DNA of 64,000 nt from the NCBI GenBank assembly GCA_964472015.1, contig CAYYIP010000007.1, forward strand, positions 7,219 to 71,218, written 5' to 3'. Positions 2 to 61,000 of the stretch are shown here, one piece after another. Below the pieces are notes generated by a model. It worked only from the letters and a program-made list of their open reading frames with translations. It did not search any database and was not told where the DNA came from. The stretch is from an uncultured Hyphomicrobiales bacterium. GTDB lineage: Bacteria; Bacteroidota; Ignavibacteria; Kapaibacteriales; UBA2268. The position numbers were made by a program, and so were the translations under genes. Within the stretch, counting starts at the first letter, position 1, and each line of letters opens with the position of its first letter.

Positions 2-1165
2 AACTCCATTGTTCAAGGTTTACAGACAAGTTTACTTTGGGGTCCAATGCTCAACAAATACAATATCAAAATTCACTTTGCACATCGTACTTTTAAATGG
101 AGTAACGAAGCTCGGGGAAATGCAGCAGTTTATTGTGTGATAGTTGGCTTTGCCAACTACGATACTAATAACAAAAGCATTTTTGAATATGAAGACATTA
201 AAGGAGAAGCACACGAAATACAGGTAAAGAACATAAATCCTTACTTAGTTGATGCTAAAGACATTTTAGTAGAAAGAAGACAGAAAGCAATTTCAAAGGT
301 ACCTGAAATGTATTTTGGTAATATGCCAGCCGATGGTGGCGAATTACTATTTACAACTGAAGAAAAAAATGAATTTGTAGCAAAAGAACCAAATGCAGAA
401 AAGTTTATTAAAAAGTTTATTGGTGCTGATGATTTTATAAATAATAAGGAACGATGGTGTTTGTGGTTACAAGACATAAATCCAACAGAATTAAAATCTC
501 TAAAATTAGTTTTAGATAGAGTTCAAAAAGTTAAAGCGATTCGTGAAAAATCTTCTAGACCACATCTTGCACAAATACCACATTTATTTGCTCAAATTAC
601 ACAACCCAAAGATGTTGATTACATTTTGATTCCAAGAGTATCATCTGAAAACAGAAAATATATACCAATGGGTCTTTTTGATAAAAACTCGATTGTAAGT
701 GATACTTGTATGTTTATTCCCAACGGAAATAAATATCATTTTGGCGTTCTTATGTCGGCAATGCATATGGCTTGGGTAAAGTACACTTGTGGAAGACTTA
801 AAAGTGATTATCGATATTCAAAAGATATAGTTTACAATAATTATCCTTGGCCTGATAATCCAACCGAAAAGCAAATAATTGCAATTGAAACAGCAGCCCA
901 AAAGGTTTTAGATGTTCGCTTGCAATTTCCAAACAGTAGCCTTGCTGATCTTTACGATCCTTTGACAATGCCATCTGAATTGGTAAAAGCACACAACGAA
1001 CTCGACAAAGCTGTTGATTTGGCTTATAGACCACAAGCATTTACAAGTGAAGCTAATAGAATGGAATTTTTATTTGGGCTTTACGAAAAATATACAGCGA
1101 ATTTATTTATAAAAGTAAAGCCGAAAAAGATAAAAAAACTGAACACTAAAAACAAAGAAAATTAG
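2..1165 (+). CDS. C-terminal part (5'-partial, runs off the window start) of an MmeI-family type IIL/IIG restriction-modification enzyme or DNA methyltransferase, covering the target-recognition and C-terminal domains
   Basis: The frame is open from base 2 with no upstream stop. The translation (..GNMPADGGELLFTTEEK.., ERWCLWLQDINPTELKSL, VLDRVQKVKAIREKSSRPH) matches my memory of the MmeI TRD and C-terminal domain conserved blocks. The N-terminal endonuclease and methyltransferase motifs lie upstream of the window. Confidence 0.55.
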   Translation, partial: NSIVQGLQTSLLWGPMLNKYNIKIHFAHRTFKWSNEARGNAAVYCVIVGFANYDTNNKSIFEYEDIKGEAHEIQVKNINPYLVDAKDILVERRQKAISKVPEMYFGNMPADGGELLFTTEEKNEFVAKEPNAEKFIKKFIGADDFINNKERWCLWLQDINPTELKSLKLVLDRVQKVKAIREKSSRPHLAQIPHLFAQITQPKDVDYILIPRVSSENRKYIPMGLFDKNSIVSDTCMFIPNGNKYHFGVLMSAMHMAWVKYTCGRLKSDYRYSKDIVYNNYPWPDNPTEKQIIAIETAAQKVLDVRLQFPNSSLADLYDPLTMPSELVKAHNELDKAVDLAYRPQAFTSEANRMEFLFGLYEKYTANLFIKVKPKKIKKLNTKNKEN

Positions 1166-1267
1166 GCAGTAACACGCAGTATTGTTAATTGCTGGTGCAG
1201 TAATAATATTGTCTGAACTATAATTTTTTTTGATTTGTGGGATTTATGTGTTTTTGAGATGTTTTTT

Positions 1268-1341
1268 ATTCCCCTTCAAATTGAATGTTGGGGCGTATTG
1301 CTATACGTCCTTATTGTCCTCGACGGGGTAGTTATAAAAAA
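1268..1341. repeat. 74-bp direct repeat, copy A, REP-like; contains the hairpin cgtat-tgct-atacg, extendable to gggcgtat/atacgtcc
   Basis: Identical to 2224-2297 except for one C/T difference (1321 vs 2277). Read directly from the sequence: attccccttcaaattgaatgttggggcgtattgctatacgtccttattgtcct(c/t)gacggggtagttataaaaaa. Confidence 0.9.
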
Positions 1342-1620
1342 TAGTATTATTTTTATTTTAAGATAATACTAATCTTTTTTTTCGTATGTTCTTATTTTGT
1401 TTTGAGATAATGTTTCTATTTTTTCAAAATGATTTCAAAGATTAATTTTTTTTTGTTTATATTTGAAATAACAATTTAACTATAAAATTAAAACTAAATA
1501 CTAAGCACTAAAAACTGCATTTTATCTTGCATTGAAATTTGATAAATGGAGATGCGATGTTTATATTAATAAATTTAATGCTAATTTTATTACCACTTTT
1601 AAAATAATGATACATATATT

Positions 1621-2037
1621 ATGGCAAAAAACAAAAGTATAATGGTTGAAGGCAGGGAAATATCGGTTATTATTGAAAAAGAACAAGAATATATTTCGTT
1701 GACGGATATGCTAAAAGCTAAGGACGGTGATTTTTTTATTTCCGATTGGCTTCGTAATCGAAATACGGTTGAATATCTTGGCATTTGGGAGTCGATTTAT
1801 AACCCAAATTTTAATTATGGCGAATTTGCCATAATTAAAAGTCAAGCAGGTTTGAATAGTTACAAACTTAGCGTAAAAGAATGGGTTGATAAGACTAAGG
1901 CAATAGGACTAAAGGCAGCTGCAGGTAGATATGGTGGGACGTATGGCCACCCCGACATCGCTTTTGAATTTGGAATGTGGATTAGTCCACAATTCAAAAT
2001 TTATCTTGTGAAAGACTTCTACAACTCAACAAAGTAG
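1621..2037 (+). CDS. KilA-N domain protein
   Basis: 138 aa. ISLTDMLKAKDGDFFISDWLRNRNTVEYLGIWESIYNPNF matches the KilA-N (APSES-like) consensus found in phage and Bacteroides KilA-N proteins. G+C is higher than in flanking DNA. Confidence 0.7.
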   Translation: MAKNKSIMVEGREISVIIEKEQEYISLTDMLKAKDGDFFISDWLRNRNTVEYLGIWESIYNPNFNYGEFAIIKSQAGLNSYKLSVKEWVDKTKAIGLKAAAGRYGGTYGHPDIAFEFGMWISPQFKIYLVKDFYNSTK

Positions 2038-2223
2038 CTATTACACAGATGAAATCACTACTTGCAAGTAACACAATGAAAAAATTGAAATAAAAAAACA
2101 ACGAACCGCTAACATATGCTATATGCGATGGCGATTCAGTGGTTAATGAATATTTTAATCTGTTTGATTTTGACTTTACATAAAGTTAATTTCAAACAGT
2201 TTTTGTCTGAGCTGGGATTTAAA

Positions 2224-2297
2224 ATTCCCCTTCAAATTGAATGTTGGGGCGTATTGCTATACGTCCTTATTGTCCTTGACGGGGTAGTTATAAAAAA
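2224..2297. repeat. 74-bp direct repeat, copy B, REP-like
   Basis: Second copy of the 1268-1341 repeat. The two copies bracket the KilA-N gene. Confidence 0.9.
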
Positions 2298-2377: not shown

Positions 2378-3607
2378 TTATTTTATTTTTTCCTCAAAAG
2401 GTAATTCAATAGCAAATGTAGTTCCTTTTTTTAAGTTAGATTCTTTAACATAAATTTTTCCATTATGGTATTCTTCTATAATTCTTTTAACAAGATTTAA
2501 TCCAATTCCCCAACCTCTTTTTTTTGTTGTGAACCCAGGATCAAAAATTTGAAATTTCATTTTTTTCGTCATTCCTTTTCCGGTGTCTTTAACTAGAATT
2601 AATATTTTTTTATTACTAATTTCTTGTGTAGATATTTCTATATTTCCAACTTTTCCTTCCATAGCTTCCGCTGCATTTTTTATTAAGTTTTCAAATACCC
2701 AAGTCATTAACATAGGATTAGCAAATATTTTAGTTCTTCCAGTAAAACTTCTGTTAATTGTAACTTTTTTTGAAATGTGTGGTAAGCGTTTTTCATAATA
2801 ATTAGCAACTTCTTCAATAATATTATCAATATTTATATTCTTTTTATCTGGCTTAGAACCTATTTTAGAAAATCTAATAGCAATAGTATTTAATCTATTT
2901 AAATCGTTTTCAATTTCATTAGTAGTTATATTTATCATTTCTTTATCATCTTTATTATTCCTTAATATTTCTAACCATGCTAGTAAACTTGATAATGGTG
3001 TTCCTAATTGATGCGCTGTTTCTCTTGCCATCCCTATCCATATTTTAGATTGTTCATTATTTCTTATTGAAGCAAGTGCAAAATATCCAAATCCAACAAT
3101 AGTAGATATTAATATTATTGATACAAAAGGAAATAGCTTTAATACTTCTACTAAATTCGAGTGAGAATAATAAAATTTGCTAATAACATTCCCAGAATTA
3201 TCATAAACCAATATAGGTTTATAATTTTTTTCCATTTTTTTTATAAGCTTTAATAAATAAGCACGTTGTTTTTCAATCGTTTTATATTTTTCTACATCAG
3301 TATTAAGAGTATATAAAGAGTAATCTTGTAAAGGTTCACCTTCTAAATCAGTTGTTATTATAGGAAAAACAATTGATGGAGTTATGCTTTCTAAAAAGAA
3401 AAACATATTCTCATAATTACTTGCATTAGGTGATAAATAATATCTATATATTTCAACATATGATTGCATTATAGATTTTTCTCTTTCAATTAACTGCTTT
3501 ATCAATATATTTGAATAAAATATAATTCCTATAAATACACTCGACATTGCAATTAATAGAGTAATTTTTATTGTAAGATTAAATATAGGTGTTGTTCTAA
3601 AAGACAT
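2378..3607 (-). CDS. Sensor histidine kinase with two N-terminal TM segments plus HisKA and HATPase_c domains
   Basis: H-box AHQLGTPLSSLLAWLEIL; N-box NLIKNAAEAM; G-boxes DTGKGM and GFTTK..GWGIGL. Confidence 0.85.
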   Translation of the reverse strand: MSFRTTPIFNLTIKITLLIAMSSVFIGIIFYSNILIKQLIEREKSIMQSYVEIYRYYLSPNASNYENMFFFLESITPSIVFPIITTDLEGEPLQDYSLYTLNTDVEKYKTIEKQRAYLLKLIKKMEKNYKPILVYDNSGNVISKFYYSHSNLVEVLKLFPFVSIILISTIVGFGYFALASIRNNEQSKIWIGMARETAHQLGTPLSSLLAWLEILRNNKDDKEMINITTNEIENDLNRLNTIAIRFSKIGSKPDKKNINIDNIIEEVANYYEKRLPHISKKVTINRSFTGRTKIFANPMLMTWVFENLIKNAAEAMEGKVGNIEISTQEISNKKILILVKDTGKGMTKKMKFQIFDPGFTTKKRGWGIGLNLVKRIIEEYHNGKIYVKESNLKKGTTFAIELPFEEKIK

Positions 3608-38889: not shown

Positions 38890-40467
38890 ATGTTAAAAAA
38901 ACAAGCAAAAGAAAAAGCAATAGAAGTAGCCTTGTGGGAAACAGCAAATAAATTGCGTGGAAGTGTTGAACCTTCGGAATATAAGCACGTGGTATTGGCG
39001 TTGATTTTTTTGAAGTTTGTGAACGATAAATTTGAGGAGCAACGACAAAAACTAATTAATTGTGGCAAAGAGAAATACATTGAAAACTCGGACTTTTACA
39101 ATAAGGACAAAGTCTTTTTTCTAAAAGAAGAGACCCGTTGGAAATATATTGTTAGTAAAGCTCGCCAAAACGATATTGCGTTGATAATTGATTCCGCTTT
39201 ACACACTATAGAAAAAGACAATAAAGTTCTGAAAGGTGCATTGCCTGATAACTATTTTTCACGTCTTGGACTTGATACCTCTAAATTAGCTGCTCTTATC
39301 AGCGAAATAGATAGCATATATATACTCAAGGACAAAGAGCAAGATGTTATTGGACGTATTTACGAGTATTTTCTGAGTAAGTTTGCCATTGCTGAAGGAA
39401 AAGGGAAAGGTGAGTTTTACACGCCCAAAAGCATTGTAAATTTAATTGCCGAGCTGATAGAGCCTTACAAAGGTTTTATTTATGATCCATGTTGCGGTTC
39501 GGGCGGAATGTTTGTGCAGTCTATCAAGTTTATTGAAGCACACCACGGCAATCAAAAAGAGGTTTCCATTTACGGACAGGAATATACGAACACAACGTAT
39601 AAATTGGCGAAAATGAATCTTGCCATTCGAGGCATTTCTGCTAATTTAGGCGAAAAAGCCGCTAACACTTTTAGCAACGATTTACATAAAGATTTAAAAG
39701 CCGATTTTATTATGGCAAATCCTCCTTTCAACCAAAAAGATTGGCGAGCAGAAAACGAACTTTTAGACGATCCTCGCTGGAAAGGTTACGAAGTACCACC
39801 CAAAAGCAACGCTAATTATGGTTGGATACTTCACATGGCATCTAAGCTTTCGGGAAATGGTGTAGCAGGATTTCTTTTAGCAAACGGAGCATCGAGCGGT
39901 GGCGGTGATGAGTATAAAATACGTAAACAGTTGATTGAAAATGATTTGGTTGAAGCTATCTTGATTTTACCACGAAATATGTTTTACACAACCGATATAA
40001 GCGTAACTCTTTGGATATTGAATAAAAACAAAAAAGAATACGTAAGGGCGTATGGCGATATACCTCAACGAAATTACCGAAATCGACAAAAAGAAATTCT
40101 TTTTATGGATTTGCGGGAAATGGGCGAGCCGTTTGAGAAAAAGTACATACAATTCTCTGAAAAAGATATTAGGAAAATAGCTGATAATTATCATAACTGG
40201 CAATGTACGGGTGAATTGAATTCGCCATATCAAGATATTCCAGAATTCTGCTATTCCGCAGGTATAGAAGAAATTAGAGAGAAAGATTATTCGCTTGTAC
40301 CGAGCAGATACATAGAATTTGTAAATCGTGATGAACAGATTGATTTTGACGAAAAAATGAAAACTTTACAGCAGGAAATTGGTAAATTATTACAAGAAGA
40401 AAAAAAATCGCGAGAAGAATTGTTAGCTGTTTTTAAAAATTTAGGTTATAAAATTGAGTTAAAATGA
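38890..40467 (+). CDS. hsdM: Type I restriction-modification system methyltransferase subunit
   Basis: HsdM N-terminal domain (LWETANKLRG); SAM motif DPCCGSGGMF; catalytic NPPF (IMANPPFNQKDW). G+C is clearly above the genome background. Confidence 0.9.
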   Translation: MLKKQAKEKAIEVALWETANKLRGSVEPSEYKHVVLALIFLKFVNDKFEEQRQKLINCGKEKYIENSDFYNKDKVFFLKEETRWKYIVSKARQNDIALIIDSALHTIEKDNKVLKGALPDNYFSRLGLDTSKLAALISEIDSIYILKDKEQDVIGRIYEYFLSKFAIAEGKGKGEFYTPKSIVNLIAELIEPYKGFIYDPCCGSGGMFVQSIKFIEAHHGNQKEVSIYGQEYTNTTYKLAKMNLAIRGISANLGEKAANTFSNDLHKDLKADFIMANPPFNQKDWRAENELLDDPRWKGYEVPPKSNANYGWILHMASKLSGNGVAGFLLANGASSGGGDEYKIRKQLIENDLVEAILILPRNMFYTTDISVTLWILNKNKKEYVRAYGDIPQRNYRNRQKEILFMDLREMGEPFEKKYIQFSEKDIRKIADNYHNWQCTGELNSPYQDIPEFCYSAGIEEIREKDYSLVPSRYIEFVNRDEQIDFDEKMKTLQQEIGKLLQEEKKSREELLAVFKNLGYKIELK

Positions 40468-42440
40468 ACGAAAAGCAAATAAATCCTTTTGAATTAGATG
40501 ATGAGTATGTTATATACTCACTCATAAACGAAGAATTTTTACCGGAAGAGTACCATGAACTTGAATATAAATCCGGTAAAGATGGATTTCCAAAAGAGAT
40601 TTGGAAAACATATTCAGCCTTTGCCAACACAAATTCTGGTATTATTATCATTGGTATAAAAGAGAAAAGAGGTGTTTTTCTAATTGAGGGATTGACAGAA
40701 GAACAAATTTCAAATTATAAAAAGCATTTTTGGGACAGCTGCAACAATCCGAATACCGTTAGTGTCAATCTTTTGAGTAACGAAGATATAAAAGTAATTG
40801 AGACAAATTCAAAAAAACTGTTAGTTATTCGAGTTCCTTTCGCTCATCGTACCAAAAGACCGGTTTTTCTTACACGAAATCCATTTGGAAACACGTACAA
40901 ACGCAACTACGAAGGCGACTACAGATGTACTGATGACGAAGTAAGAAGAATGTTAGCTGAAGGCGGCACAGAACTTAAAAGAGATAACTTGCTTTTAGAA
41001 AATTTCACGATAGACGATTTAGATCCTGTTAGTATTCGTCAGTTTCGTCAATTGTTTTCATCTACAAGACCGGGGCACCCTTGGCTTGCTTTAGAAGATA
41101 AAGACTTACTAAAGAAACTCGGAGCTTATCGCATTGACCGAAAAACTGGACAAGAAGGAATTACGCTTGCTGGGCTGTTAATGTTTGGCAAAGGAGACAG
41201 CATACGAGAACAAGATGCTTTACCTGATTACTTTCCTGATTTTAGAGAGCGTTTGTCAATAGATGAAAAAGTGCGATGGACAGATCGTATTTATCCCGAC
41301 GGAACTTGGGAAAGTAATTTACTTCAATTTTATTTGAAAGTATTGCCCAAATTATCATCTACATTACCTAAACCATTTCGCTTAGATAAAGATGAACGTG
41401 TTGATGAAACACCTGCTCATATTGCGTTGCGTGAAGCTTTTGTAAATACATTGGTGCATACTGATTATTTGTTAAGTGGTAACATTATCATTGAACTTGA
41501 TACCGAACAATTTGTATTTTCAAATCCCGGTACATTACTCGTTTCTTTGGAACAATATTATGCGGGAGGAGTGAGTGAGTGCCGTAATCCTGCATTACAA
41601 CAAATGTTTATGCTGATTGGTCGTGCTGAAAAAGCTGGTAGTGGAGTGGACAAAATTATGTCAGGCTGGCAAGATTCTCATTGGCGAAAGCCTTTTCTTG
41701 TGTTAGAAAACCGACCTGATAAAGTTAAACTCACTTTACCTATGTTTAGCGTGTTGCCTGAACAAGTACTAAACGAGTTAAATACTATTTATGGCGATGT
41801 GAGTCATTTTAGTTCCGACGAACTAACTGCACTTTCTTTCTGTCTGATAGAGGGTTCAATTTCCAACCACCGCTTGCAATATGTGTTAAATATGCACAGT
41901 TCAGACATTACGAAAATGCTTAAAAAATTGTGTGTGGGTGATTATTTAGAAGCTGAAAATTATGGTCGCTGGACTACTTATAAAATTAAACATAAGGTTG
42001 CAAGCTCAGGCGGAAAGGTTGACACCTCAGGCGAAAAGGTTGCAAGCTCCGATAGAAAGGTTGCAACCTCAGGCGAAAAGGTTGCAAGCTCTGGTGGAAA
42101 CCTTGCAAGCTCTGGTGGAAACCTTGCAAGCTCTGGTGGAAACCTTGCAAGCTCTGGTGGAAACCTTGCAAGCTCAGGCGGAAACCTTGCAAGCTTAACT
42201 GAACTTCCTAAAAGGATAAGTATAGAAAAAATGGAAGATATAATTATGCGAATTTGTAAGGATAATTACGTTAAAAAAGAAGACCTTGCAACATTATTGA
42301 ACCGTTCAGAAAATTATATAAGAAATGAAATTTTACCTAAAATGATAAAAGAGAAAAAAATAGAGAAAAAATATCCGTTTACGCTTAATCATCCTGAACA
42401 AGCTTATAAAACTACAGAGGAATATGCAGAAAAACTATAA
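40464..42440 (+). CDS. COG2865-type Schlafen-like ATP-binding protein / putative transcriptional regulator (AlbA_2 + HATPase_c_4-like + C-terminal HTH), inserted between hsdM and hsdS
   Basis: N-terminal ELEYKSG..IWKTYSAFANTNSGIIIIGIKEKRG matches AlbA_2. TLVHTDYLLSGNIIIELDTEQFVFSNPGTL matches HATPase_c_4. ATGA overlap with hsdM. An internal 7-aa repeat region sits ahead of the C-terminal domain. Confidence 0.75.
   Translation: MNEKQINPFELDDEYVIYSLINEEFLPEEYHELEYKSGKDGFPKEIWKTYSAFANTNSGIIIIGIKEKRGVFLIEGLTEEQISNYKKHFWDSCNNPNTVSVNLLSNEDIKVIETNSKKLLVIRVPFAHRTKRPVFLTRNPFGNTYKRNYEGDYRCTDDEVRRMLAEGGTELKRDNLLLENFTIDDLDPVSIRQFRQLFSSTRPGHPWLALEDKDLLKKLGAYRIDRKTGQEGITLAGLLMFGKGDSIREQDALPDYFPDFRERLSIDEKVRWTDRIYPDGTWESNLLQFYLKVLPKLSSTLPKPFRLDKDERVDETPAHIALREAFVNTLVHTDYLLSGNIIIELDTEQFVFSNPGTLLVSLEQYYAGGVSECRNPALQQMFMLIGRAEKAGSGVDKIMSGWQDSHWRKPFLVLENRPDKVKLTLPMFSVLPEQVLNELNTIYGDVSHFSSDELTALSFCLIEGSISNHRLQYVLNMHSSDITKMLKKLCVGDYLEAENYGRWTTYKIKHKVASSGGKVDTSGEKVASSDRKVATSGEKVASSGGNLASSGGNLASSGGNLASSGGNLASSGGNLASLTELPKRISIEKMEDIIMRICKDNYVKKEDLATLLNRSENYIRNEILPKMIKEKKIEKKYPFTLNHPEQAYKTTEEYAEKL
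41994..42196 (+). repeat. In-frame 21-bp tandem repeat (about 9.7 units), with 4 consecutive perfect copies of aaccttgcaagctctggtgga
   Basis: Units read directly from the sequence (aaggttgcaagctcaggcgga ... aaccttgcaagctctggtgga x4 ...). They encode KVASSGG / NLASSGG heptads. The repeat creates spurious ORFs in other frames and on the opposite strand. Confidence 0.9.
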
Positions 42441-43551
42441 GCGATTAGGCGATTATATACAAGAATTCAATGTCCGTAACACAGATTTAGCTATTACCAA
42501 TCTTTTAGGTGTGAGTATAGAAAAAACTTTTATACCATCCGTAGCAAATCTTAATGGCGTGGATTTATCTGTATATAAAATATTGAAAAAAGACCAGCTA
42601 GCTTGTAATTTAATGATCGTAGAGCGTGATAAAAAACTTCCTGTAGATTTGTATAGAGAAGAAAAACCAGCTATAGTTTCTTCTGCATATTATGTTTTTG
42701 AGCCAAAAAACAAAGAAGAATTATTACCTGAATATTTAATGATGTGGCTTTTTCGACCTGAAAGTGATAGGTATTTTGGTTTTATTAGTGGCGGAGATGT
42801 AAGAGGTGGAATTACTTGGGAGACATTTTGCAGTCTTCCAATTAAAGTCCCAAAAATTGAAAAACAACGAGAAATCGTAAAAGAATACAAAACAGTAGAG
42901 AGACGCATACAGATAAACGAAGAGCTCTGCAAAAAATTAGAAGAAACAGCACAAGCGCTATATAGAAAATATTTTGTAGAAGATATAGACCCAGAAAATT
43001 TACCGGAAGGGTGGAGATGGGGAAAGTTAGAGGAGGTTGCTAAGATTACAATGGGACAATCACCAGTGGGAGAAAGTTATAACACTGATGGAATTGGAGA
43101 AATATTTTATCAAGGTAGAAGCGATTTTGGAATGCGATTTCCCACAATTAGAATGTTTACAAATGAGCCTACCAAAATGGCTAAAAAAGATGATATTTTA
43201 TTAAGTGTTAGAGCACCTGTTGGGGACATAAATATTGCACCACACAATTGCTGTATTGGTAGAGGATTAGCAAGCATAAGAAACAAGAAAAAACAGAAGT
43301 CTTATATGTTTTATCTAACAAAAAATTTAGATACAATTTTTAATATAGCAGACGGAGCTGGAACAATCTTTGGAAGTATTAATAGAGATACACTTTTGAA
43401 TATTGACGTAATAATTCCTAATGAAGAAGTTATTCAATTATTTGAAAAAAAAGTTTCAACAATTGATAAGCTGTATGAATATAATGATATAGAAACGCAA
43501 AAGCTAAAAGAATTACTATCTTTGTTGTTGGCAAAGATGGGGAGAGAATAA
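42424..43551 (+). CDS. hsdS: Type I restriction-modification system specificity subunit
   Basis: Two target-recognition domains separated by, and ending in, the conserved HsdS helical regions (..EELCKKLEETAQALYRKYF.. and ..QKLKELLSLLLAKM). Overlaps the upstream gene by 17 nt. Confidence 0.8.
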   Translation: MQKNYKRLGDYIQEFNVRNTDLAITNLLGVSIEKTFIPSVANLNGVDLSVYKILKKDQLACNLMIVERDKKLPVDLYREEKPAIVSSAYYVFEPKNKEELLPEYLMMWLFRPESDRYFGFISGGDVRGGITWETFCSLPIKVPKIEKQREIVKEYKTVERRIQINEELCKKLEETAQALYRKYFVEDIDPENLPEGWRWGKLEEVAKITMGQSPVGESYNTDGIGEIFYQGRSDFGMRFPTIRMFTNEPTKMAKKDDILLSVRAPVGDINIAPHNCCIGRGLASIRNKKKQKSYMFYLTKNLDTIFNIADGAGTIFGSINRDTLLNIDVIIPNEEVIQLFEKKVSTIDKLYEYNDIETQKLKELLSLLLAKMGRE

Positions 43552-43557
43552 GAAGAT

Positions 43558-44076
43558 ATGAATTTTATTTTAAGATTTTTTTTTACAATTAGCGCTGTAT
43601 CTTTTTTTGTTGTTGTTTATTTAGTACAAAATAAGATAAATCCATTTGATGAGGTTCTTGGAAAATATGCGTGGTTAATTTATATAGTGTACGTACTTTT
43701 TCCATTTATACTGACTTGTATATCACTGCGAATTTGTAAATTATTAGCCAGAAACTCGATTAAAAAAATACAATCAATAGAACCATCGAATAATGATTTC
43801 CTTGCCACCTATCTTGCGTTCTTTTTTGTTGCATTAAGTATTAAAGGAACAATTACTTTTTGGATAGTATTTGGAATGACGGTTCTTTTTACTTTTGTTT
43901 CAAGAGTATCATACTTTAATCCGGTTCTTTTAGTATTTGGTTACAATTTTTATTATATAGTTACAGGGGAGAATGTAAAGATTATGTTAATTAGCAAACA
44001 AAAATTAAAAGCTCCGAATAATTTTGATCATAAAGATGTAGGACGCATCAATGATTATACATTTATAGATATTTAA
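43558..44076 (+). CDS. Hypothetical integral membrane protein (4-5 TM, 172 aa) inside the type I R-M locus
   Basis: Hydrophobic helices FFTISAVSFFVVVYLV, WLIYIVYVLFPFILTCISL, YLAFFFVALSI, FWIVFGMTVLFTFV and PVLLVFGYNFYYIV. No recognisable motif. Starts 7 nt after the hsdS stop. Confidence 0.6.
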   Translation: MNFILRFFFTISAVSFFVVVYLVQNKINPFDEVLGKYAWLIYIVYVLFPFILTCISLRICKLLARNSIKKIQSIEPSNNDFLATYLAFFFVALSIKGTITFWIVFGMTVLFTFVSRVSYFNPVLLVFGYNFYYIVTGENVKIMLISKQKLKAPNNFDHKDVGRINDYTFIDI

Positions 44077-44079
44077 AAT

Positions 44080-44889
44080 ATGGCAGAATTAATAGTAAAA
44101 TACAAATCTGAATACAAAAATGTATTGAAACAAGAAGACAATATTATTGAAAATATTGATCTAACTAATGTAGAACAAATAGATTTTACAACAAGCTATA
44201 AGCTTGAAGATAATGAATGGTTTAAAATTACTGATTTTAGCAATCAAGACTATGTTGTTGAAATATGTAATGAAAATTTCAGTACTGCAAGTCTCGTGCA
44301 AATAGTTAACAAGGAGTATGAAGATATTAAAGAAATAGTTATTTTGCAGAACGAGCAGATGCATTTCCAAAGGGTTACTCCTTCTTATTATGTAAATAAG
44401 AAAACTTTTTTAGACTATTCAGGAAGTCCCAAAGTAGTAGAACACAGAAAACAGATCGAGATAAAAAAAGAATCTGATGCTGTATATTTGTTAGAAACTG
44501 ACACATTGTTATTTAAAGATATATCTAAAATAAAACCTATTTTTAAAGGAATAGAGATGTTGCATCGAGAAGCAACACAAGAGGAAGTTAACACATTTAT
44601 GGAATATGATTTCATTTCAACGTTAAATTTTGACTCTAAACGTGTAGGTGTTCAAAATCGAAAAAGAATAGCTGATATTGGGGTAAAATATGCTAATCTT
44701 TCAAGCGAGAAACAAAAAGGACTAATAACTTATGCAAAAGAGAAATCAGGAATTGATATAGAGGATGGCAAATTTCTAATTAGAAATGATAACGATTTGA
44801 AAAACTTGCTTTACGCAATGGATCAACGTTATTATTATGCTGATATATATGAAGAAAATAGAATTGCTAACTCCATTCGTATTGTGTAA
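44080..44889 (+). CDS. Hypothetical soluble protein (269 aa), translationally coupled to the membrane protein
   Basis: Starts 4 nt after the upstream stop. No catalytic motif that I can recognise. Charged, Lys/Glu-rich. Confidence 0.55.
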   Translation: MAELIVKYKSEYKNVLKQEDNIIENIDLTNVEQIDFTTSYKLEDNEWFKITDFSNQDYVVEICNENFSTASLVQIVNKEYEDIKEIVILQNEQMHFQRVTPSYYVNKKTFLDYSGSPKVVEHRKQIEIKKESDAVYLLETDTLLFKDISKIKPIFKGIEMLHREATQEEVNTFMEYDFISTLNFDSKRVGVQNRKRIADIGVKYANLSSEKQKGLITYAKEKSGIDIEDGKFLIRNDNDLKNLLYAMDQRYYYADIYEENRIANSIRIV

Positions 44890-44960
44890 CGGGTTATTTA
44901 GCAAGTTCATATTATAAAGTAAAATACGGATTTATGAATTATTTTTAAATTAATATTTAA

Positions 44961-45926
44961 ATGATCAATTTTCATGCACATAATCGCAAAAGTATTCGTC
45001 TAAAAGGATACGATTATTCGCAAGAAGGATTGTATTTTATAACGATTTGTTGTCAAGATAAAATTTGTAGGTTTGGACATATTGAAAACGACGAAATGAT
45101 ATGTAACCAATATGGAATTGTGGCATATAATGAATGGATAAAAACGTCACAAATACGTTCCAATATTACGTTGCACGAATTTGTTGTAATGCCCAATCAT
45201 ATCCACGGTATTATTGAAATAAATCGCGATGCGGAATTATATTCCCAAAACCGTGGTTGCGAATTGCGTTCGCCAAATTGTAGTGGCGAATTGTATTCGC
45301 CCGTTCCAAAGGGCGTATTCGATACGCCCCAACAGCCCGATTTCGATACGTCCGTTCGTGGTTGCGAATTTTATTCGCCAAATTGTAGTGGCGAATTGTA
45401 TTCGCCCATTCCAAAGGGGGTATTCAATACGCCCCAACAGCCCGATTTTGATTTGTCCGTTCGTGGTTGCGAATTGCGTTCGCAAAATTGTGGTTGCGAA
45501 TTGCATTCGCCAAATTGTAGTGGCGAATTGTATTCGCCCATTCCAAAGGGGGTATCCGATACGCCCCAACAGCCCGATTTCGATACGTCCGTTCGTGGTT
45601 GCGAATTGCGTTCGCAAAATTGTAGTGGCGAATTGTATTCGCCCGTTCCAAAGGGGGTATTCGATACGCCCCAACAGATTGATTTCGATACGTCCCGATT
45701 GCGATCACCGTCGCAAACGGTTGGTGCCATCGTTCGCGGATACAAATCGGCGGTTACAAAACAATTGAATGCGTTGGGAATGACCGAAAAATTATGGCAA
45801 CGCAATTATTACGAACATATTATACGCAATGAACAATCATATATACATATTTCTGAATATATTCGCAACAATCCCATACAATGGATAAACGATAGATTTT
45901 ATGATTATGAAATTTACAGAAAATGA
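44961..45926 (+). mobile_element. IS200-like REP-associated tyrosine transposase (RAYT) whose ORF carries an in-frame insertion of a REP array
   Basis: N-terminal part with HuH motif VVMPNHIHGII. C-terminal part with the RAYT Tyr motif LWQRNYYEHIIRNEQSY. Together these make about 165 aa, the normal RAYT size. They are separated by about 150 aa encoded by palindromic repeats. Confidence 0.7.
45252..45700. repeat. Four tandem about 105-bp units (unit 3 carries a 27-bp internal duplication), each holding three REP-like hairpins (gcgaa-ttgcg-ttcgc; ggcgaa-ttgta-ttcgcc; gggcgtat-tcg-atacgccc)
   Basis: Direct reading: cgtggttgcgaattgcgttcgccaaattgtagtggcgaattgtattcgcccgttccaaagggcgtattcgatacgccccaacagcccgatttcgatacgtccgtt repeated 4 times with point differences. 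Open in several frames on both strands. Confidence 0.9.
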
Positions 45927-48900
45927 ATTAGAAAAGGCATTTATCAAATTATTAGAGCAAGAGGGCTATACGCATAGTGCAGGTGCTTCGGTATCACGTT
46001 CCTCAATGAACGAGGTGCTGATAAAAGAAGATTTGCGTAGGTTTTTGCATTCGCACTATAAGGCAGATGAGCTGACGGGAAACGAGGTAAATTTCATTAT
46101 CCAGCAACTTAACTCGCTTCCTGCCAGCGATTTATATGAAAGTAATAAACGGTTTATGCAGATGCTTTCAGACGGTTTTATTCTGAAAAGAGATGACCAC
46201 AAGCAGAAAGATCTTTACATTGAGCTTATCAACTATAGATTTTTGAAAAAAAATCTACATCTTAAAACAGAAAAATATACTTCTATAGTTGCGGAAAATA
46301 ATGACGACAATAACATCTACAGATTTGTAACTCAATTGGAAATCGTAGGGAATGAAAAACGTATTCCCGATGGAATTGTTTATGTAAACGGTTTACCATT
46401 AGTGGTTTTTGAATTTAAGACTCCCGTTAAAGAAGAGGTTACTATTTATGATGCTTACAAGCAACTTACGGTGCGTTATCGTCGCGATATTCCCGAACTT
46501 TTCAAGTACAACGCTTTTTGTGTTATCAGTGACGGCGTAAACAGCAAAGCAGGTTCATTGTTTGCCTCTTACGAGTTTTATTACGCATGGAGAAGAATAG
46601 CAAGTTTAGCAAAAGATGTTGACGGAATTGATAGTATGTTTACCCTAATTAAAGGAGTTTTCGACAAAAACCGTTTTCGAGACATACTTCGTAATTTTAT
46701 CTTTTTCCCCGATACAGAAAAAAATGAAAGTAAAATCGTTTGTCGTTATCCTCAATATTACGCTGCCCGTGCTTTGTTCGAAAATATCAAGCAAGCTCAA
46801 AAACCTCACGGCAACGGAAAAGGCGGAACCTATTTCGGAGCAACTGGCAGTGGCAAGAGCTTCACGATGCTTTACCTTACACGTTTGCTGATGAAAAGCG
46901 AACATTTTGCTAGTCCAACTATCGTACTTATTACAGATCGTACCGATTTAGACGATCAGCTCTCTGCACAATTTGTAAATGCCAAGAGATTTATAAGTGA
47001 TGATACAGTGCAAAGCGTTGAAAATCGTGCTGATTTACGCGAGAAGCTACAAGGCAGACAGAGCGGAGGTGTTTTTCTTACTACTATACAGAAATTTACT
47101 GAAGATACGGAATTGCTTACCGAACGCAATAATGTGATTTGTATTTCAGATGAAGCACATCGCACACAAACAAATCTCGATCAAAAAATCCGTATTACCG
47201 AACAAGGAGTTACTAAATCATTTGGCTTTGCTAAATATCTGCACGATTCTTTGCCTAATGCTACTTACGTTGGTTTTACTGGAACACCTATAGATGCTAC
47301 ATTAGATGTTTTCGGTCCGGTGGTAGATTCCTACACAATGACCGAATCAGTTAAAGATGAAATTACTGTGCGTATCGTTTACGAAGGCAGAGCTGCTAAA
47401 GTAGCTTTAGATAACAGTAAATTAGAGGAGATTGAACGTTACTACGAAGCAGCTGCGGAAGCTGGAGCTAACGAATATCAAATTGAGCAAAGCAAAAAAG
47501 AGACTGCTAAAATGAATGCTATTCTTGGCGACCCGAAACGTTTACAAAGTGTTGCCGAAGATTTTGTAGAACATTACGAAAAACGTGTTTCGGAAAAAGC
47601 AACGCTGAAAGGTAAAGCTATGTTTGTTTGTAGCAACAGAGAAATAGCTTATGATCTGTTTAAGCGTATTATTACACTTCGTCCCGAATGGAATGAAATA
47701 CGTGCAGCAGAAGAAGGAGCAGAACTTTCCGATAAGGATAAAAGGGAATTAAAACCTATAGAGCGAATAAAAATGGTAATGACACGGTCAAAAGACGACG
47801 AAAAAGAACTTTGGGATTTGTTAGGGACAAAGGAATATAGAAAAGAGCTTGACAGACAATTCAAAAATGAAAAATCTAACTTTAAAATAGCTATCGTGGT
47901 TGATATGTGGCTCACAGGATTCGACGTGCCTTTTTTGGATACAATTTATATAGACAAACCAATACAACAACATAATCTAATACAAACTATTTCGCGAGTA
48001 AATCGTCGAGTGGAAGGAAAAGATAAAGGGCTTGTGGTTGATTATATCGGCATAAAGAACAAGATGAATTTGGCACTTGCTCAATACGATAAAATTGAAG
48101 GTGATAACTTTGAAGATATTTCTCAATCACTTGTGATAATGCGAGAGCATTTGGATTCGTTGAAACATTTGATGCATACGTTCGACGATACAAAGTATTT
48201 TAAAGGTTCAAATTTAGAACAACTAAATACACTTAATTTGGCTGCTGAATTTGTACAACAAACCAAAGAAACTGAAAGCCGATTTATGGGACTAACAAAA
48301 CGTTTGAAAGCTGCTTATGATATTTGTGTGGGAAGCGAACAAATAACACAGAAAGATCGAGATTATGTACATTTTTATATAGCTATTCGTTCCATTGTTT
48401 TTAAACTGACTAAAGGCGATATTCCCGATGTGGTACAAATGAATAACCGAGTACGTCAGATGATTGAAGAAGCTTTACAAAGTGACGGTGTTGAGGAAAT
48501 ATTAAAAATTGGCGATGAAACTAAAAGTGAACAAGATTTGTTTGATGAAAAGTATTTGGCAAAAATCAATAAGATAAAGCTACCTAATACGAAAATTAAA
48601 CTCTTGCAGAAGCTCTTAGCAAAAGCTATCGGGCAACTGCGAAAAATTAATCGCATAAAAGGAATTGACTTTAGCCATCGAATGCAAAAGTTAGTGGATC
48701 AATACAACGACCGTTCAGTAAACGATATTTTGCGAAGCGAGGTATATGAAGAGATGGCTGAAAAACTTACCGCTATGATTTGGGATGTACACGAAGAATT
48801 TTATGCCGGCGAAAAGTTGGGAATTGATTTTGAAGAAAAAGCCTTTTACGATATTCTAAAAGAATTGTGTGTGAAATACGATTTTAAATATCCCGACGAC

Positions 48901-49110
48901 AAAATGATAAAGTTGGCTAAAAAAGTCAAAGAGCTAGTTGATTTTATAGCCAGTTATCCCGATTGGAATAAGCAAGAGAATATAAAATCAGAGTTGAAAG
49001 CTGGATTAATTGTGTTGCTTGATGAATACAATTATCCGCCTGTTGAACGAGATGAAGTTTATGTAGAAATTTTTGAACAAGCGGAGAATTTTAAGAAAAA
49101 TAGAGAATAA
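45901..49110 (+). CDS. hsdR: Type I restriction-modification system endonuclease subunit
   Basis: HsdR N-terminal domain (MKFTENELEKAFIKLLEQEGY); SF2 helicase motifs including Walker A GATGSGKS and DEAH (ICISDEAHRTQ); 1069 aa. Overlaps the RAYT 3' end by 26 nt. Confidence 0.9.
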   Translation: MIMKFTENELEKAFIKLLEQEGYTHSAGASVSRSSMNEVLIKEDLRRFLHSHYKADELTGNEVNFIIQQLNSLPASDLYESNKRFMQMLSDGFILKRDDHKQKDLYIELINYRFLKKNLHLKTEKYTSIVAENNDDNNIYRFVTQLEIVGNEKRIPDGIVYVNGLPLVVFEFKTPVKEEVTIYDAYKQLTVRYRRDIPELFKYNAFCVISDGVNSKAGSLFASYEFYYAWRRIASLAKDVDGIDSMFTLIKGVFDKNRFRDILRNFIFFPDTEKNESKIVCRYPQYYAARALFENIKQAQKPHGNGKGGTYFGATGSGKSFTMLYLTRLLMKSEHFASPTIVLITDRTDLDDQLSAQFVNAKRFISDDTVQSVENRADLREKLQGRQSGGVFLTTIQKFTEDTELLTERNNVICISDEAHRTQTNLDQKIRITEQGVTKSFGFAKYLHDSLPNATYVGFTGTPIDATLDVFGPVVDSYTMTESVKDEITVRIVYEGRAAKVALDNSKLEEIERYYEAAAEAGANEYQIEQSKKETAKMNAILGDPKRLQSVAEDFVEHYEKRVSEKATLKGKAMFVCSNREIAYDLFKRIITLRPEWNEIRAAEEGAELSDKDKRELKPIERIKMVMTRSKDDEKELWDLLGTKEYRKELDRQFKNEKSNFKIAIVVDMWLTGFDVPFLDTIYIDKPIQQHNLIQTISRVNRRVEGKDKGLVVDYIGIKNKMNLALAQYDKIEGDNFEDISQSLVIMREHLDSLKHLMHTFDDTKYFKGSNLEQLNTLNLAAEFVQQTKETESRFMGLTKRLKAAYDICVGSEQITQKDRDYVHFYIAIRSIVFKLTKGDIPDVVQMNNRVRQMIEEALQSDGVEEILKIGDETKSEQDLFDEKYLAKINKIKLPNTKIKLLQKLLAKAIGQLRKINRIKGIDFSHRMQKLVDQYNDRSVNDILRSEVYEEMAEKLTAMIWDVHEEFYAGEKLGIDFEEKAFYDILKELCVKYDFKYPDDKMIKLAKKVKELVDFIASYPDWNKQENIKSELKAGLIVLLDEYNYPPVERDEVYVEIFEQAENFKKNRE

Positions 49111-57021: not shown

Positions 57022-57093
57022 GGTCCTATAGACTAACGGTTAGGTCACCAGCCTTTCACGCTGGCAGTAGGGGTTCAAATCCCCTTAGGATCA
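57022..57093 (+). tRNA. tRNA-Glu, anticodon TTC
   Basis: ggtccta-ta-gact-aacggtta-ggtc-a-ccagc-cTTTCac-gctgg-cagt-agggg-ttcaaat-cccct-taggatc-a; 72 nt; resembles E. coli tRNA-Glu. Confidence 0.8.
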
Positions 57094-58089
57094 CAAAAAT
57101 ATTAAAAAATGCTTCCAATACTCTTTTTATTTTCATATCTAAAAGGTAAATCACTTTAATTTCTCAATAATATAAATATAATAAGTATATAAAATAATAT
57201 AGTATATAAATATATATATATCAAAATATAAATATGTTCTTTTGAAGTATTATATTTTATTATTAATTTTTTTTATTATTATTTTTCATTATTTTAAATT
57301 AAAATAATGTTGTTATAAACTCATATTTATATGATTTTTTATTATGATTTATTATAGTATTAATTAATTATATTATTGTTATTAGAAATGTCAGTATGTA
57401 GTTAAATAAGTTATTAATAAAGTAAATTTTTGACTACAAATTTAATAATTATATATGAATAAAGTAATAATAAATAAAAATTAACAAAAGTTGGTTTTTT
57501 GTTGTCTTTATTATATTGCGTTTATTATATTTAAATTGTATTAAGGTATATTAAAATTATAGTAATACTGTAAAATTATTCATTGTTTTATTTTTTTGGC
57601 AAATTTTTTGATAGTAATAATAACTTGTATAGAAATAATAATAACTTGAATTATATTAATTTGTAATGCAATATTTATGATAAATTAAATTAAGTTTTGT
57701 TAATTATATCTTTATATCATAAAAAAATATAATCTAAGTATGTATGTTATCAAAATATAATATTAAAATAGTAACAAAAGATACACATATTTTTTATTAT
57801 AGTATATCAAATTATAAATATTACTTATTTTTACATTCTTTTTACAAAAATTTATTTTGTAATATCAAAAAAAATGTATATTTTGCAATTTAAATTTATA
57901 TATTTATAATTTATTATTTTTTATTTTTTATTTTGTAGTAGCAAATACTCTATTATAGTATGGAGTTTTTTATTTAAATAAAAAAATAAAAAAAGTAAAT
58001 TATTATATATAATTTTAAGTTTAATATAAAATGTTAAGTTATTGAAAAGTAAATTAAAATTTTTAAATAAAATAAATTATAGGTTTTTT

Positions 58090-61000
58090 ATGAATACTCA
58101 ATTAAAAACACCAAAGTTCTTTAAACTATTGTATTTTGTATGTTTAGTAATATTTGGTTTTTTAGGGAAGCCATTATTAGCGCAAAATGACAATGGTATA
58201 ATGGACCCTAATTATCAAATAACTGTAAGTAATGAAACTTATACAGAGCTTACTTCATATACACAATTGTATGGTACAGCAGATGATGGATATAGTAGAA
58301 TATATGTTCCATTTGCATTTAAATGGGATACAACAGTTTATCCAGCAAACTTTCTTTTAGCTGTTTCGCCTAATGGATGGGTTGGGTTTCCAGGTTATTA
58401 TTTTTATGATAGTTATGAATCTGGTTCTATTTCTAGTAATAATCCATTAACATATTCAAGTACTCCAACAACTGGGTTTGTTAAAACTATACACTTTTTA
58501 ACAGGTGATAATTATGTTAGAACCAGTTTAAGATATGCTACTTTAGGGTCAGCCCCTAATCGCAGATTTGTTGTTCAATGGCAAGGTTTTTCTCCAATAT
58601 CTTATTCTAGTAATCTCTCTAATTTTCAACTAATTTTATATGAGAATGGTGGTGCAGATGCAGGGAAAATGAGAATGCATTGGGGGACTTGTAATCCTTA
58701 TACTCAAAATAATTCTAATGTTTGTTGTTTAATTGGTGGTAGAATGGAGAGATATATTAACATACAACCTCAAGCTTCAGGGTTAACATTCTATAAAGGT
58801 AATTCAACAAATACTTATGTTACTAATGCTACAATTGGATATTTATTTTCAAATGGAAAATGTATAGATTATGAATTGGATTTGTTACCAACGTTGGTTG
58901 CAGTTTATCCTACTAATGGTAGTACTTTTATTGGTAATACAGTAATGGATCCTTCACAACGACCGGGTGTAACTGTAAAAAGAAGCAATGCGTCGATACC
59001 TAAGCCAATAATGAAATATGAGATATTTAATGCAGATGGTGATATTGTTTATACAACGAATAATATTGCTATTGATGTAGTAGGTACACAACGTTATAAT
59101 ATTACATCAGCAACTGGTTCAAGAGCTAATTCTGATGGTACTTTTAACTTAACAGGCGCTCCGGGTGGATGGTATACTGTTAGAGTAACATTTGATAATA
59201 CAGAAACAGTAGAAACAAGGACTTCATCATTTTTTGTAGATAATAAATGTGCAACGTATATAAGAAGTTATCCGGCTCCAGGAACACTACTAACAAGTGG
59301 AGTTGCAGTGCCAGTAGAGGAGAGACCTTCGGTAGTTATTACAAAAGAATGGCCAGTACCAATAGCACCAAATCCATTAGTAAAATATAAAATTCTTAAT
59401 GATAGAGGTGAAGCAGTATATACTGCTTTATCAAATTCAGGGTTGTCAGAATTTGAAGTAAATGTTTTTGGTGTAAATCAAAGATATTATTTTTCTAATG
59501 CTGTGGGTCCATTCGCTGGTATAAGTGGTAATTTGGATTTAACAAATGCACCTCCGGGTACTTATACAATAGTAGTGGAATTTGATGACAAAGTAAATCC
59601 AAAAGTAGAGATTCCAACAACACAGTTTTATATAATTAGAACTTATGATCTTATTTTGAAAGATATTATAGTTCCAAGAGGCTGGTTATCTACTGATACT
59701 ATATCAGCAGATAAATATAGATATTCATATGGAGCACAATTCCCTGTAGAATTTGAAGTATATAATGGTGGTGGTGTTCAAATAGATTCTTTTAAAGTAG
59801 ATGTAGATATTTATAATTCAAGTAATACATTAGTAACTGAATTTACTAATGCATTTTCTTTAAGAAATAATCCATTATTAAAAACAGAATCACGTATTTA
59901 TACAACTGCAACTCAAATAAATTCTAGTACATTAGGAGTTGGTTTATATAAAATAGTATGTACAGTTACACCTTTGGTACCGTCACAAGATGAAGATTTA
60001 GCTAATAATGTGTTCCCACGTGCTAATAGTACTAGATATTTTGAAATAGCTCAGCCTATAGATGTTGCTATAAATAAAACTATGGCAGTGCCTGGTAGTA
60101 ATACATACAGATATCCATTCTATCCGACTATAGAAATAACAAATCTAGGAACTGAAGATTTAAGTGGTTCTATGGCAAATATAGAAATAAAGCATAATGG
60201 TAAAGTGGTTTACACTGGGGTGGTAATGTTACAAAATATTACTTTCAATACTCCATCAAAAATAAAATTCCCAGAAATCTTTATGCCTGAAGAAATTGGT
60301 AAATATGAAGTAACGTTAACATTAGATTTACACGGTTTACCAAAAGTTGAAACATTTGTTTTTGTAGTTGGCGATGGTCTTAAAGGTACTTATACAATAG
60401 GAGCAGCAGGTACATATAAAACATTTAATGAAGCTGTTGAAATGTTGTATTTAAGAGGTGTAGGTGGCAATGTTGTATTTGAATTATTAGATGAAGAATA
60501 TGTATTAGGACATAATTCTGCATTACCAGAATTCCGTTCAAAAATAGTAGGTGTTGGCCCTAATGCTACCATTACATTTAGGCCAAGTCAACTTAGAATG
60601 CTATCTTTTACTCCAATAAGAATGGTGTTAGAATCAACAGATGGTTATGGTATTAGATTTGGTCAAGCATTAGAAACAGGTGATTATAAGGTACCAGCAG
60701 TTAACATTATTACAGATTTAGATCTAAGACGTGAATTTGCTACCTCAGAAGGTTATATTACTTTTGATGGCGGTCCAAGAAAAAATATAAAATTTGTTAT
60801 GTATCAACCTGATAATATAAAATTTAGCGCTCCTATTTATATGGGTGAGGGATCAAAAAATATTACAATAACAAATTGTCGTATAACTGGTAATAATTAT
60901 AATAGTAGTGAATTACCAACAGTACAATATACAAATGAAGCTTTAGGATTTGAATTTGATAATGATATTTTTGTTAATAAATTTGATTTTTATGATACAT

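Follow-up and report, generated by a model that had tools for sequence, protein, structure and literature searches.

Two nearly identical 74-nt direct repeats bracket a decayed KilA-N gene between a foreign MmeI-family R-M gene and a native histidine kinase gene near the left end of the 64-kb stretch of DNA analysed here (the window), and the reading of this pair which we prefer, if tentatively, is that of a scar left by one recent local insertion with long target duplication. Within each repeat lies the relic of a REP of the kind associated with RAYT group 4, and a RAYT gene of that group is present in the same window.

Copy 1 of the repeat (positions 1268–1341, plus strand) lies 102 nt past the MmeI stop codon; copy 2 (2224–2297, plus strand) follows the KilA-N remnant (plus strand) and faces the 3′ end of the kinase gene (minus strand), with 80 nt separating it from the kinase stop codon. 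A repeat search of the window yielded 73/74 identical positions at a start-to-start spacing of 956, which confirms the two copies and the one mismatch reported for these positions in the initial annotation; the sole mismatch is C1321 versus T2277. The edges of the 74-mer are sharp, because no significant similarity links the flanks of one copy to those of the other (equal scores are reached by 31/500 and 32/500 shuffles), and the spacer segments have no match in the rest of the 64-kb window. In an ENA contig from another assembly (L126), copy 1 carries G1316A together with C1321 as in the window strain; across strains, the divergence between copies amounts to at most 1–2/74 nt, which is of the same order as the strain-level divergence of the locus (0.5%), and the duplication is therefore recent. 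If one copy and the insert are taken out, a tidy convergent spacer of 256 nt with a single mid-spacer hairpin is what is left. Direct repeats of 74 bp permit deletion or amplification of the KilA-N segment through homologous recombination, and it is owing to them that short-read assemblies break at the locus.

The layout of the window is confirmed by independent assemblies. The contig just mentioned corresponds to window positions 289–2070 at 99.5% identity and a second one (L127) to positions 1335–2106; from the kinase side, three Logan contigs (k=31) and ENA contig L142 all end inside copy 2, either 30 nt (k=31) or 54 nt (k=55, a value inferred from the contig end point) within it as counted from position 2297. 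These ends lie k−1 bases inside copy 2 and therefore reflect a branch of the assembly graph at the right edge of the repeat; the break points in the assemblies of other samples imply that the second copy carries the T variant there as well. An empty site, that is, MmeI and kinase genes separated by one 74-mer, was sought in five related metagenome assemblies, none of which spans one; all five fit an arrangement with two copies, and the repeat is where each of them breaks.

To the left of copy 1, the 3′ part of an MmeI-family type IIG/IIL R-M gene occupies positions 2–1165 (plus strand; 28–37% G+C). The gene had been described as truncated, which is an effect of the window edge: its frame is open as early as base 2 and corresponds to positions 544–910 of a 912-position type IIG profile, so that it is merely cut by the edge. 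By composition the gene is foreign; coding sequences of the host have 21–28% G+C and its spacers 6–20%, the first 2.3 kb of the window are richer, and copy 2 sits at the border of foreign and native composition. The 74-mer is absent downstream of the closest MmeI homologs (L003–L005, 82–85% identity). To the right of copy 2, the native histidine kinase gene (2378–3607, minus strand) is convergent with KilA-N and forms the right border of the G+C-richer islet. Further right of the kinase, genes with a Por secretion tail are encoded, which we take as a pointer to Bacteroidota. That the region might be a defence hotspot, as had been proposed, is borne out insofar as the type IIG R-M gene adjoins a PADLOC PDC-S22 candidate.

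This candidate is the remnant of a KilA-N / PADLOC PDC-S22 gene (1621–2037, plus strand), a 138-aa ORF matching Pfam KilA-N at 2e-23; it is the only ORF of at least 100 aa between the repeats, and no integrase or transposase gene is present there. In comparison with a 271-aa homolog, residues 1–133 are encoded in frame +1 and residues 243–269 in frame +3 (at 2010–2090); about 109 codons have therefore been deleted and a frameshift was introduced, with the deletion joint near 2010–2019. The out-of-frame C-terminal tail, ERLLQLNKVAITQMKSLLASNTMKKLK followed by a stop (2010–2093, plus strand), was recognised by tblastn as residues 243–269 of the full-length homolog. Against the PDC-S22 profile, the window copy covers positions 1–136 of 281 (3e-62), short of a full-length match, and the full-length homolog positions 2–275 (1.6e-132). 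The gene is indeed richer in G+C than its surroundings, as the initial annotation had it (31–38% versus 19% in the spacer before it and 21–28% in the host genes after it). Between Bacteroidota genera, members of the PDC-S22/KilA-N family share 80–90% identity, and 7 viral contigs carry homologs. At none of the homologous loci compared (the 7 viral contigs, L138, L141, L152) do long direct repeats flank the gene, and flanking repeats are thus no general property of KilA-N.

DNA homology with other KilA-N loci is mainly restricted to the coding part between the ATG and the deletion joint, with two further blocks in the flanks. The upstream spacer (1342–1620, plus strand) is AT-rich (19% G+C) and contains a 19-nt block (1451–1469, TTTGTTTATATTTG...) which is common to the region upstream of the KilA-N homolog in L152 and which we liken to a Bacteroidota promoter box. 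Directly 3′ of the KilA-N stop lies a conserved motif of about 65 nt (2090–2160, plus strand; AAAAAAACAACGAACCGCTAACA...), which adjoins the KilA-N genes in L152–L157 as well, there upstream, and is located 2.5 kb downstream in L138; the matches comprise window positions 2090–2123 with L152 and 2092–2114 with L138. Judged from such shared sequence, the segment between the repeats behaves as a KilA-N module.

The repeat itself is highly structured. In copy 2, a nested hairpin (2227–2284, plus strand) consists of an outer stem, CCCCTTCAA / TTGACGGGG, around the REP hairpin; the outer stem has 9 bp, is not REP sequence, and is weakened by the C at 1321 in the corresponding hairpin of copy 1 (1271–1328, plus strand). 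RNA fold energies are −23.4 kcal/mol for copy 2 (z = −3.1) and −20.3 kcal/mol for copy 1 (z = −2.5), and the plus strand of the 74-mer folds better than the minus strand. The 74-mer overhangs the outer stem asymmetrically (3 nt left, 13 nt right), in which it differs from MITE-type terminal inverted repeats; no tRNA, tmRNA or Rfam family was matched at the repeats. The REP core, GTTG-GGGCGTAT-TGCT-ATACGTCC-TTAT, is located at 1287–1314 in copy 1 and, identical, at 2243–2270 in copy 2 (plus strand in both cases) and represents a degenerate "double-foot" REP; the hairpin GGGGCGTAT-TGCT-ATACGTCC that had been claimed for each copy is found in both. From the family consensus, GTAG-GGGCGTAT-TGCA-ATACGCCC-CTAC, the core departs at five positions, all of them changes to T (from A once in a foot and once in the loop, and from C at three positions) and all of them common to both copies; because every decay mutation is shared, one copy of the 74-mer was derived from the other after the REP had decayed. 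One stem position is now G-T, where a G-U pair preserves the pairing in RNA of the plus strand alone. The inner hairpin and the T-rich tail of copy 2 give a terminator-like score on the plus strand; the copies are probably at most transcript-end hairpins for MmeI and KilA-N, copy 2 possibly also for the convergent kinase gene.

The RAYT gene of the window (44961–45926, plus strand) belongs to TnpAREP subclass 2.4 / RAYT group 4, with the motifs NHIH, WQ and YIRNNP. Its ORF is intact, HuH and Tyr motifs included, and the protein matches Pfam Y1_Tnp and NCBIfam REP_Tyr_transpos, the latter at 1.7e-17 for the whole protein and 8.9e-20 without the insert, both scores falling below the curated cut-off. 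The insert is an in-frame array of REP-containing units (45234–45695, plus strand) with four REP palindromes between the HuH and Tyr motifs, each GGGCGTAT-TCG-ATACGCCC (45311–45329, 45416–45434, 45548–45566, 45653–45671). RAYT and REPs are found within defence islands, which at the RAYT gene comprise type I R-M with Kiwa. On the minus strand, the 74-mer reads AAGGaCGTAT-agca-ATACGCCCCAACA and the RAYT unit AAGGgCGTAT-tcg-ATACGCCCCAACA; they align with a score of 32, whereas shuffles score 15.9 ± 2.3 and none of 500 reaches 32. The RAYT unit is the best non-self match of the 74-mer in the window and the only relative of the core there. The GTTG foot is present in the 74-mer and in all four RAYT-internal units, and accounts for 3/276 feet in the family sample; because so rare a foot is shared with all four units, the REP kinship is real and specific, and the resemblance to the RAYT palindrome some 44 kb away, which the initial annotation had pointed out, is substantiated.

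The kinship extends to a widespread family. To members of this family the 74-mer core aligns at 86–89% over 27–30 nt; the family consensus is a perfect palindrome, GTAGGGGCGTATTGCAATACGCCCCTAC, and the loci are otherwise unrelated in their flanks. A palindrome of the form GGGGCGTAT-N3-4-ATACGCCCC occurs in at least 120 stretches of species-representative genomes from many phyla; among the matches listed are Salinibacteraceae, Planctomycetes, Cyanobacteria, Chloroflexi, Nitrospirota, Omnitrophota and Ignavibacteria as well as Kuenenbacteria and Falkowbacteria (candidate phyla radiation), Bacteroidales, Moraxella, and other groups. In several of these loci the palindrome resides within a RAYT gene, with one half of the catalytic core on either side of it. 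TnpAREP subclass 2.4, equivalent to RAYT group 4, has been described as having "double foot" REPs (GT[AG]G at the 5′ side, C[TC]AC at the 3′ side), genes with in-frame REP insertions, and proteins with the motifs NH[IFV]H, WQ and YIxNNP (Quentin et al. 2018, PMC6006769). All of these traits are present in the RAYT of the window, so that a cognate RAYT is encoded in the same genome, and the core of the 74-mer has the hairpin of the subclass, the G-C-rich base of its stem matching the family palindrome; its feet, GTTG and (minus strand) ATAA, are not those of the published double foot.

The likeness to REPs is limited to part of the 74-mer, about 28 nt in extent. Beside the core, the two arms of 22 nt match neither the flanks of the RAYT units (not significant) nor other family members. 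When the 21-nt hairpin core was searched for with up to 3 mismatches in the 64 kb, only the two sites were found (0 expected from shuffles), and there is no third copy of the 74-mer in the 64 kb either. The exact 24-mer core had 0 matches in species-representative genomes (>185,000) and in JGI metagenomes; mismatch-tolerant blastn with a 90-nt region against plasmids and phages returned chance-level matches only. A chimeric query of the three open frames against 5.8 billion protein clusters retrieved only the 86-aa ORF of the window that runs over copy 2, and other proteins of the source contig are present in that collection. Exact-word and ORF-based searches such as these are blind to diverged or uncalled copies, and 64 kb is the part of the genome that is directly readable. 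A literature search with the REP sequence string gave no match.

Extragenic canonical REPs are likewise absent from the 64-kb window, as are dispersed extragenic REP copies other than the 74-mer locus. The perfect G+C-rich hairpins of the window are confined to the RAYT gene, barring one in the MmeI coding sequence, and this stretch is therefore not REP-rich. The initial annotation had envisaged a genome-wide REP family mobilised by the RAYT; this is not supported, given a REP-like part of about 28/74 nt, the lack of a third copy in 64 kb, and collections (genomes, metagenomes, plasmids, phages, protein clusters) in which the census encountered no further copies. At the 120 family loci listed, other long direct repeats that contain REPs are confined to two cases, a tandem duplication in a cyanobacterium (L035) and an array in Ignavibacteriaceae (L048), and no gene is bracketed in either.

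Direct repeats around R-M genes have been grouped into three classes, those due to site-specific recombination, those due to long target duplication, and those due to chance insertion between repeated sequences; in the second, inserted R-M and related genes are flanked by unique direct repeats (examples of 46–47 bp, threshold >30 bp) in the absence of mobility genes (Furuta et al. 2010, PMC2853133). It is this class which fits the locus best, because the repeats are unique, near-identical and longer than 30 bp, mobility genes are lacking, a short foreign insert of defence type lies in an R-M locus, and copy 2 is at the composition border. At 74 bp and 73/74 identity, the repeats are well above the length threshold and unique in the window and in the collections searched, with indirect support for uniqueness genome-wide; the neighbours within the window are the MmeI and histidine kinase genes, none of them a mobility gene. 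The earlier description of a cassette inserted with duplication is a reasonable one, with the reservation that no empty site was found to go with it.

From this we infer the following order of events. A horizontally acquired MmeI-type R-M gene would have carried a single hairpin module in its 3′ flank, beside the host kinase gene; the module would have been an old, mutated RAYT group 4 "double-foot" REP nested in a second, 9-bp stem, which probably served as transcript end for the convergent genes. A KilA-N (PDC-S22) module, about 0.88 kb long with its promoter, its coding sequence and the 3′ motif, would then have been inserted, whereby the 74 bp of target were duplicated; the roughly 109 internal KilA-N codons may have been lost before or after insertion. 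As the 74-mer is G+C-rich and structured, and in this unlike an arbitrary target, the process could instead have been site- or structure-specific; beyond the window edge, upstream of MmeI, there may also be a further copy or an integrase gene.

It is also conceivable, if unlikely, that the 74-mers are attL/attR-type junctions, the recombinase acting in trans or having been lost, and that the KilA-N segment is an integrase-less, CIME-like remnant, while the MmeI gene would possibly belong to a neighbouring island with another att copy further upstream (tandem accretion). Foreign DNA between direct repeats of tens of bp, with copy 2 at the composition border, speaks for such a scenario; KilA-N proteins typically come from phages or integrative elements, with homologs on the 7 viral contigs, the visible decay of the gene is consistent with a remnant, and repeats at R-M genes have three recognised origins, site-specific recombination among them (PMC2853133). 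On the other hand, no recombinase gene is encoded in 1–12 kb (the readable flank), no piece of a tRNA or tmRNA is found in the repeat, and a remnant of 0.88 kb with both ends 99% intact would be unusual. Of about the same, rather low probability is a scenario in which the RAYT at 44.9 kb mobilised the 74-mer as a low-copy unit resembling a REPIN or MITE, either in two independent landings or by cutting and rejoining two REPs on single-stranded DNA and so inserting a REP-bearing circle with KilA-N. The core does belong to the REPs of RAYT group 4, with the rare GTTG foot in common with the RAYT-internal REPs, the frame of the RAYT is intact with HuH and Tyr motifs, and the 74-mer is a strong hairpin; moreover, TnpAREP of E. 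coli reportedly cuts and rejoins REPs in vitro (work attributed to Ton-Hoang et al. 2012). REP transposition nevertheless does not explain the pair, since the identity of the copies runs 22 nt beyond the core on each side, through sequence that is not REP. Only about 28/74 nt are REP-like, there is a single REP where a REPIN needs two inverted ones, and the asymmetric overhang (3 nt left, 13 nt right) is unlike that of terminal inverted repeats; mutations away from the consensus affect both REP feet as well as one pair of the stem. Furthermore, two copies 956 bp apart and none elsewhere, neither in 64 kb nor in the collections searched, in a window devoid of extragenic canonical REPs, are not what independent hops would be expected to leave.

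Less probable still is that the whole block, from MmeI through 74-mer and KilA-N to the second 74-mer, was inherited from a donor where such a module is common behind genes, or that copy 2 arose by gene conversion or template switching independently of the arrival of KilA-N. MmeI and KilA-N are similar in their foreign composition, REPs are typically located after genes and between convergent genes (PMC3733652), and the classes recognised for R-M repeats include chance insertion between existing ones (PMC2853133). Against this, no donor of the 74-mer was found among >185,000 species genomes with the exact core, none of the closest MmeI homologs (82–85% identity) is followed by it, and the copies, at 99% identity, stand in contrast to the REP core and KilA-N, which are both strongly decayed. 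A further scenario, which we consider very improbable, is that hairpins of the RAYT group 4 REPs are sites of gene capture, where the HUH nuclease RAYT would cut and join a resident REP foot and a REP on a single-stranded circle and thereby set a defence gene between direct repeats, comparable to integron attC. If so, this would help to explain the presence of RAYT and REPs in defence islands (type I R-M with Kiwa; MmeI with PDC-S22).

Should insertion with long target duplication, the reading preferred here, be correct, the locus would be a case in which a defence candidate other than an R-M system was carried into an R-M locus by long target duplication, in a low-G+C Bacteroidota genome. A poorly understood mode of defence-gene mobility would thereby be extended beyond R-M systems, and structured REP relics might be preferred entry points for it. 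RAYT with internal REPs, the REP family, and long direct repeats around defence genes are already known; what is new, modestly, is a decayed subclass 2.4 REP within a unique 74-nt module duplicated around a PDC-S22 remnant. The evidence to date is that of a single decayed locus and reveals no new mechanism.

With the systems known so far, the locus shares some features and lacks others. As in integron cassettes, a single promoter-proximal gene is followed by an imperfect palindrome within the range of 57–141 nt, in one orientation; however, identity with attC was rejected, as the boxes RYYYAAC and GTTRRRY are absent from the ends of the 74-mers on both strands and there is neither IntI nor any integrase ORF nearby, and the two palindromes are identical rather than cassette-specific. 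CIMEs, said to be integrase-less, att-flanked remnants of integrative elements (a description attributed to Pavlovic et al. 2004), resemble the locus in that a short foreign segment lies between direct repeats without a recombinase of its own, but no cognate integrase or partner element is visible at the KilA-N locus and the 74-mer is no known att target. REPINs (Bertels & Rainey 2011) and the BIMEs of E. coli are also intergenic REP hairpin units downstream of genes, linked to a single-copy RAYT; REPINs, however, comprise two inverted REPs which fold, across a short spacer, into one long hairpin, and occur in tens to hundreds of copies, while here there is one REP per unit and there are two units, so that the 74-mer is not a REPIN. 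Compared with the REPs of subclass 2.4, the inner 28 nt of the 74-mer are 86–89% identical to GTAGGGGCGTATTGCAATACGCCCCTAC, but the feet are GTTG and ATAA instead of GTAG, the stem has one G-T mismatch, and around the core there are 44 nt of unrelated sequence that was duplicated along with it, the whole being present in two copies at one locus.

A further counterpart are the long target duplications of R-M systems (Nobusato et al. 2000; Furuta et al. 2010, PMC2853133), which also feature near-identical, unique repeats of tens of bp around a short foreign insert of defence type, without mobility genes and in an R-M locus. Such duplications are defined by way of the empty site, whereas the 74-mer locus is known from its occupied layout alone; and what sets it apart from them is the nature of both partners, the insert being a KilA-N/PDC-S22 remnant and the target a structured hairpin derived from a REP.

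Within the coding sequence of the KilA-N remnant (window 1621-2037, plus strand), which is a PADLOC PDC-S22 candidate defence gene, positions 1809-1840 form a 32-nt near-perfect palindrome, TTTTAATTATGGCGAATTTGCCATAATTAAAA, which codes for NFNYGEFAIIKS. The corresponding segment is 90-97% self-complementary in all homolog loci examined (L131-L138, L141, and L152), and on the minus strand it is terminator-like by score; being conserved in a coding region, it may act as a binding or regulatory site. A second, imperfect palindrome of 46 nt (window 2157-2202), A+T-rich and reading CTGTTTGA...TCAAACAG followed by TTTTTG, lies shortly upstream of copy 2 of the 74-nt direct repeat (2224-2297) and may serve as the terminator of the KilA-N module itself.

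KilA-N genes are also adjoined, in three unrelated contexts, by a conserved motif of approximately 65 nt, AAAAAAACAACGAACCGCTAACA[C/T]ATG..., the relative position of which varies: in the window (2090-2160) it is located immediately 3′ of the gene, in L152-L157 (L152: 506-570) 128 nt 5′ of it, and in the KilA-N homolog locus L138 (3098-3126) 2.5 kb 3′ of it. Rfam gave no match for the motif, and clear attC boxes are absent from it; an 18-mer of it occurs on its own in nine viral contigs, where the flanks are mostly unrelated. L152-L157, which are contigs from Logan, ENA, and JGI, carry an independently truncated KilA-N of 130 aa that was found again in at least six samples. Its neighbors there are an acetyltransferase fragment, an HTH gene, and an lnu(H)-like lincosamide nucleotidyltransferase gene, the last being 81% identical to Empedobacter plasmid genes; with such neighbors, the KilA-N family is placed within a resistance-gene cluster of the Flavobacteriales.

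Many close homologs of the MmeI-family restriction-modification gene (3′ part at window 2-1165) appear among the proteins P0001-P0120 as ORF calls roughly 430 or 620 aa long, also on long contigs. In L004 (869-3630) the homolog is encoded in two ORFs meeting at position 1759, an N-terminal/helicase part of 296 aa and a methyltransferase-TRD-C part of 623 aa; the short ORFs may represent the enzyme in a split or frameshifted form. Toward the other end of the window, no ORFs of at least 80 aa are listed between tRNA-Glu (57022-57094) and approximately 63.5 kb, and the stretch 57100-63500 is either one very long ORF leaving the window end or a long non-coding stretch.

The 28-nt REP palindrome GTAGGGGCGTATTGCAATACGCCCCTAC is nearly identical, base for base, between very distant phyla. 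It was found in at least 120 loci from genome contigs (L006-L125) and is mostly solitary, the fetched locus lacking a RAYT (REP-associated transposase) gene in 112 of 120 among the matches listed; translation of it yields spurious peptides such as GRMQYAPT. Such identity at the DNA level across phyla implies either frequent horizontal spread or strong constraint by the cognate enzyme. An Ignavibacteriaceae contig (L048, 14-5090) contains the palindrome 12 times in two arrays with tandem units of about 130 and 260 nt, which resembles a REP array that is not part of a RAYT gene.

The RAYT of the window (44961-45926, plus strand) is part of a composite defence island inside a type I restriction-modification operon (38890-49110): hsdM (38890-40467) is followed by a Schlafen/AlbA_2 ATPase gene (40464-42440), hsdS (42424-43551), and the Kiwa genes kwaA (43558-44076) and kwaB (44080-44889), and the RAYT is located between kwaB and hsdR (45901-49110), which overlaps its end by 26 nt. 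Within the RAYT, positions 45234-45695 comprise four repeat units, all in frame and either 105 or 132 nt long, every one composed of three different palindromes (GCGAATTGCGTTCGC, GGCGAATTGTATTCGCC, and GGGCGTATTCGATACGCCC); jointly, the units lengthen the protein by approximately 140 residues, located between its HuH and Tyr motifs. In-gene repeats agree with what has been published for TnpAREP subclass 2.4, although the length of the array in the window RAYT is unusual.
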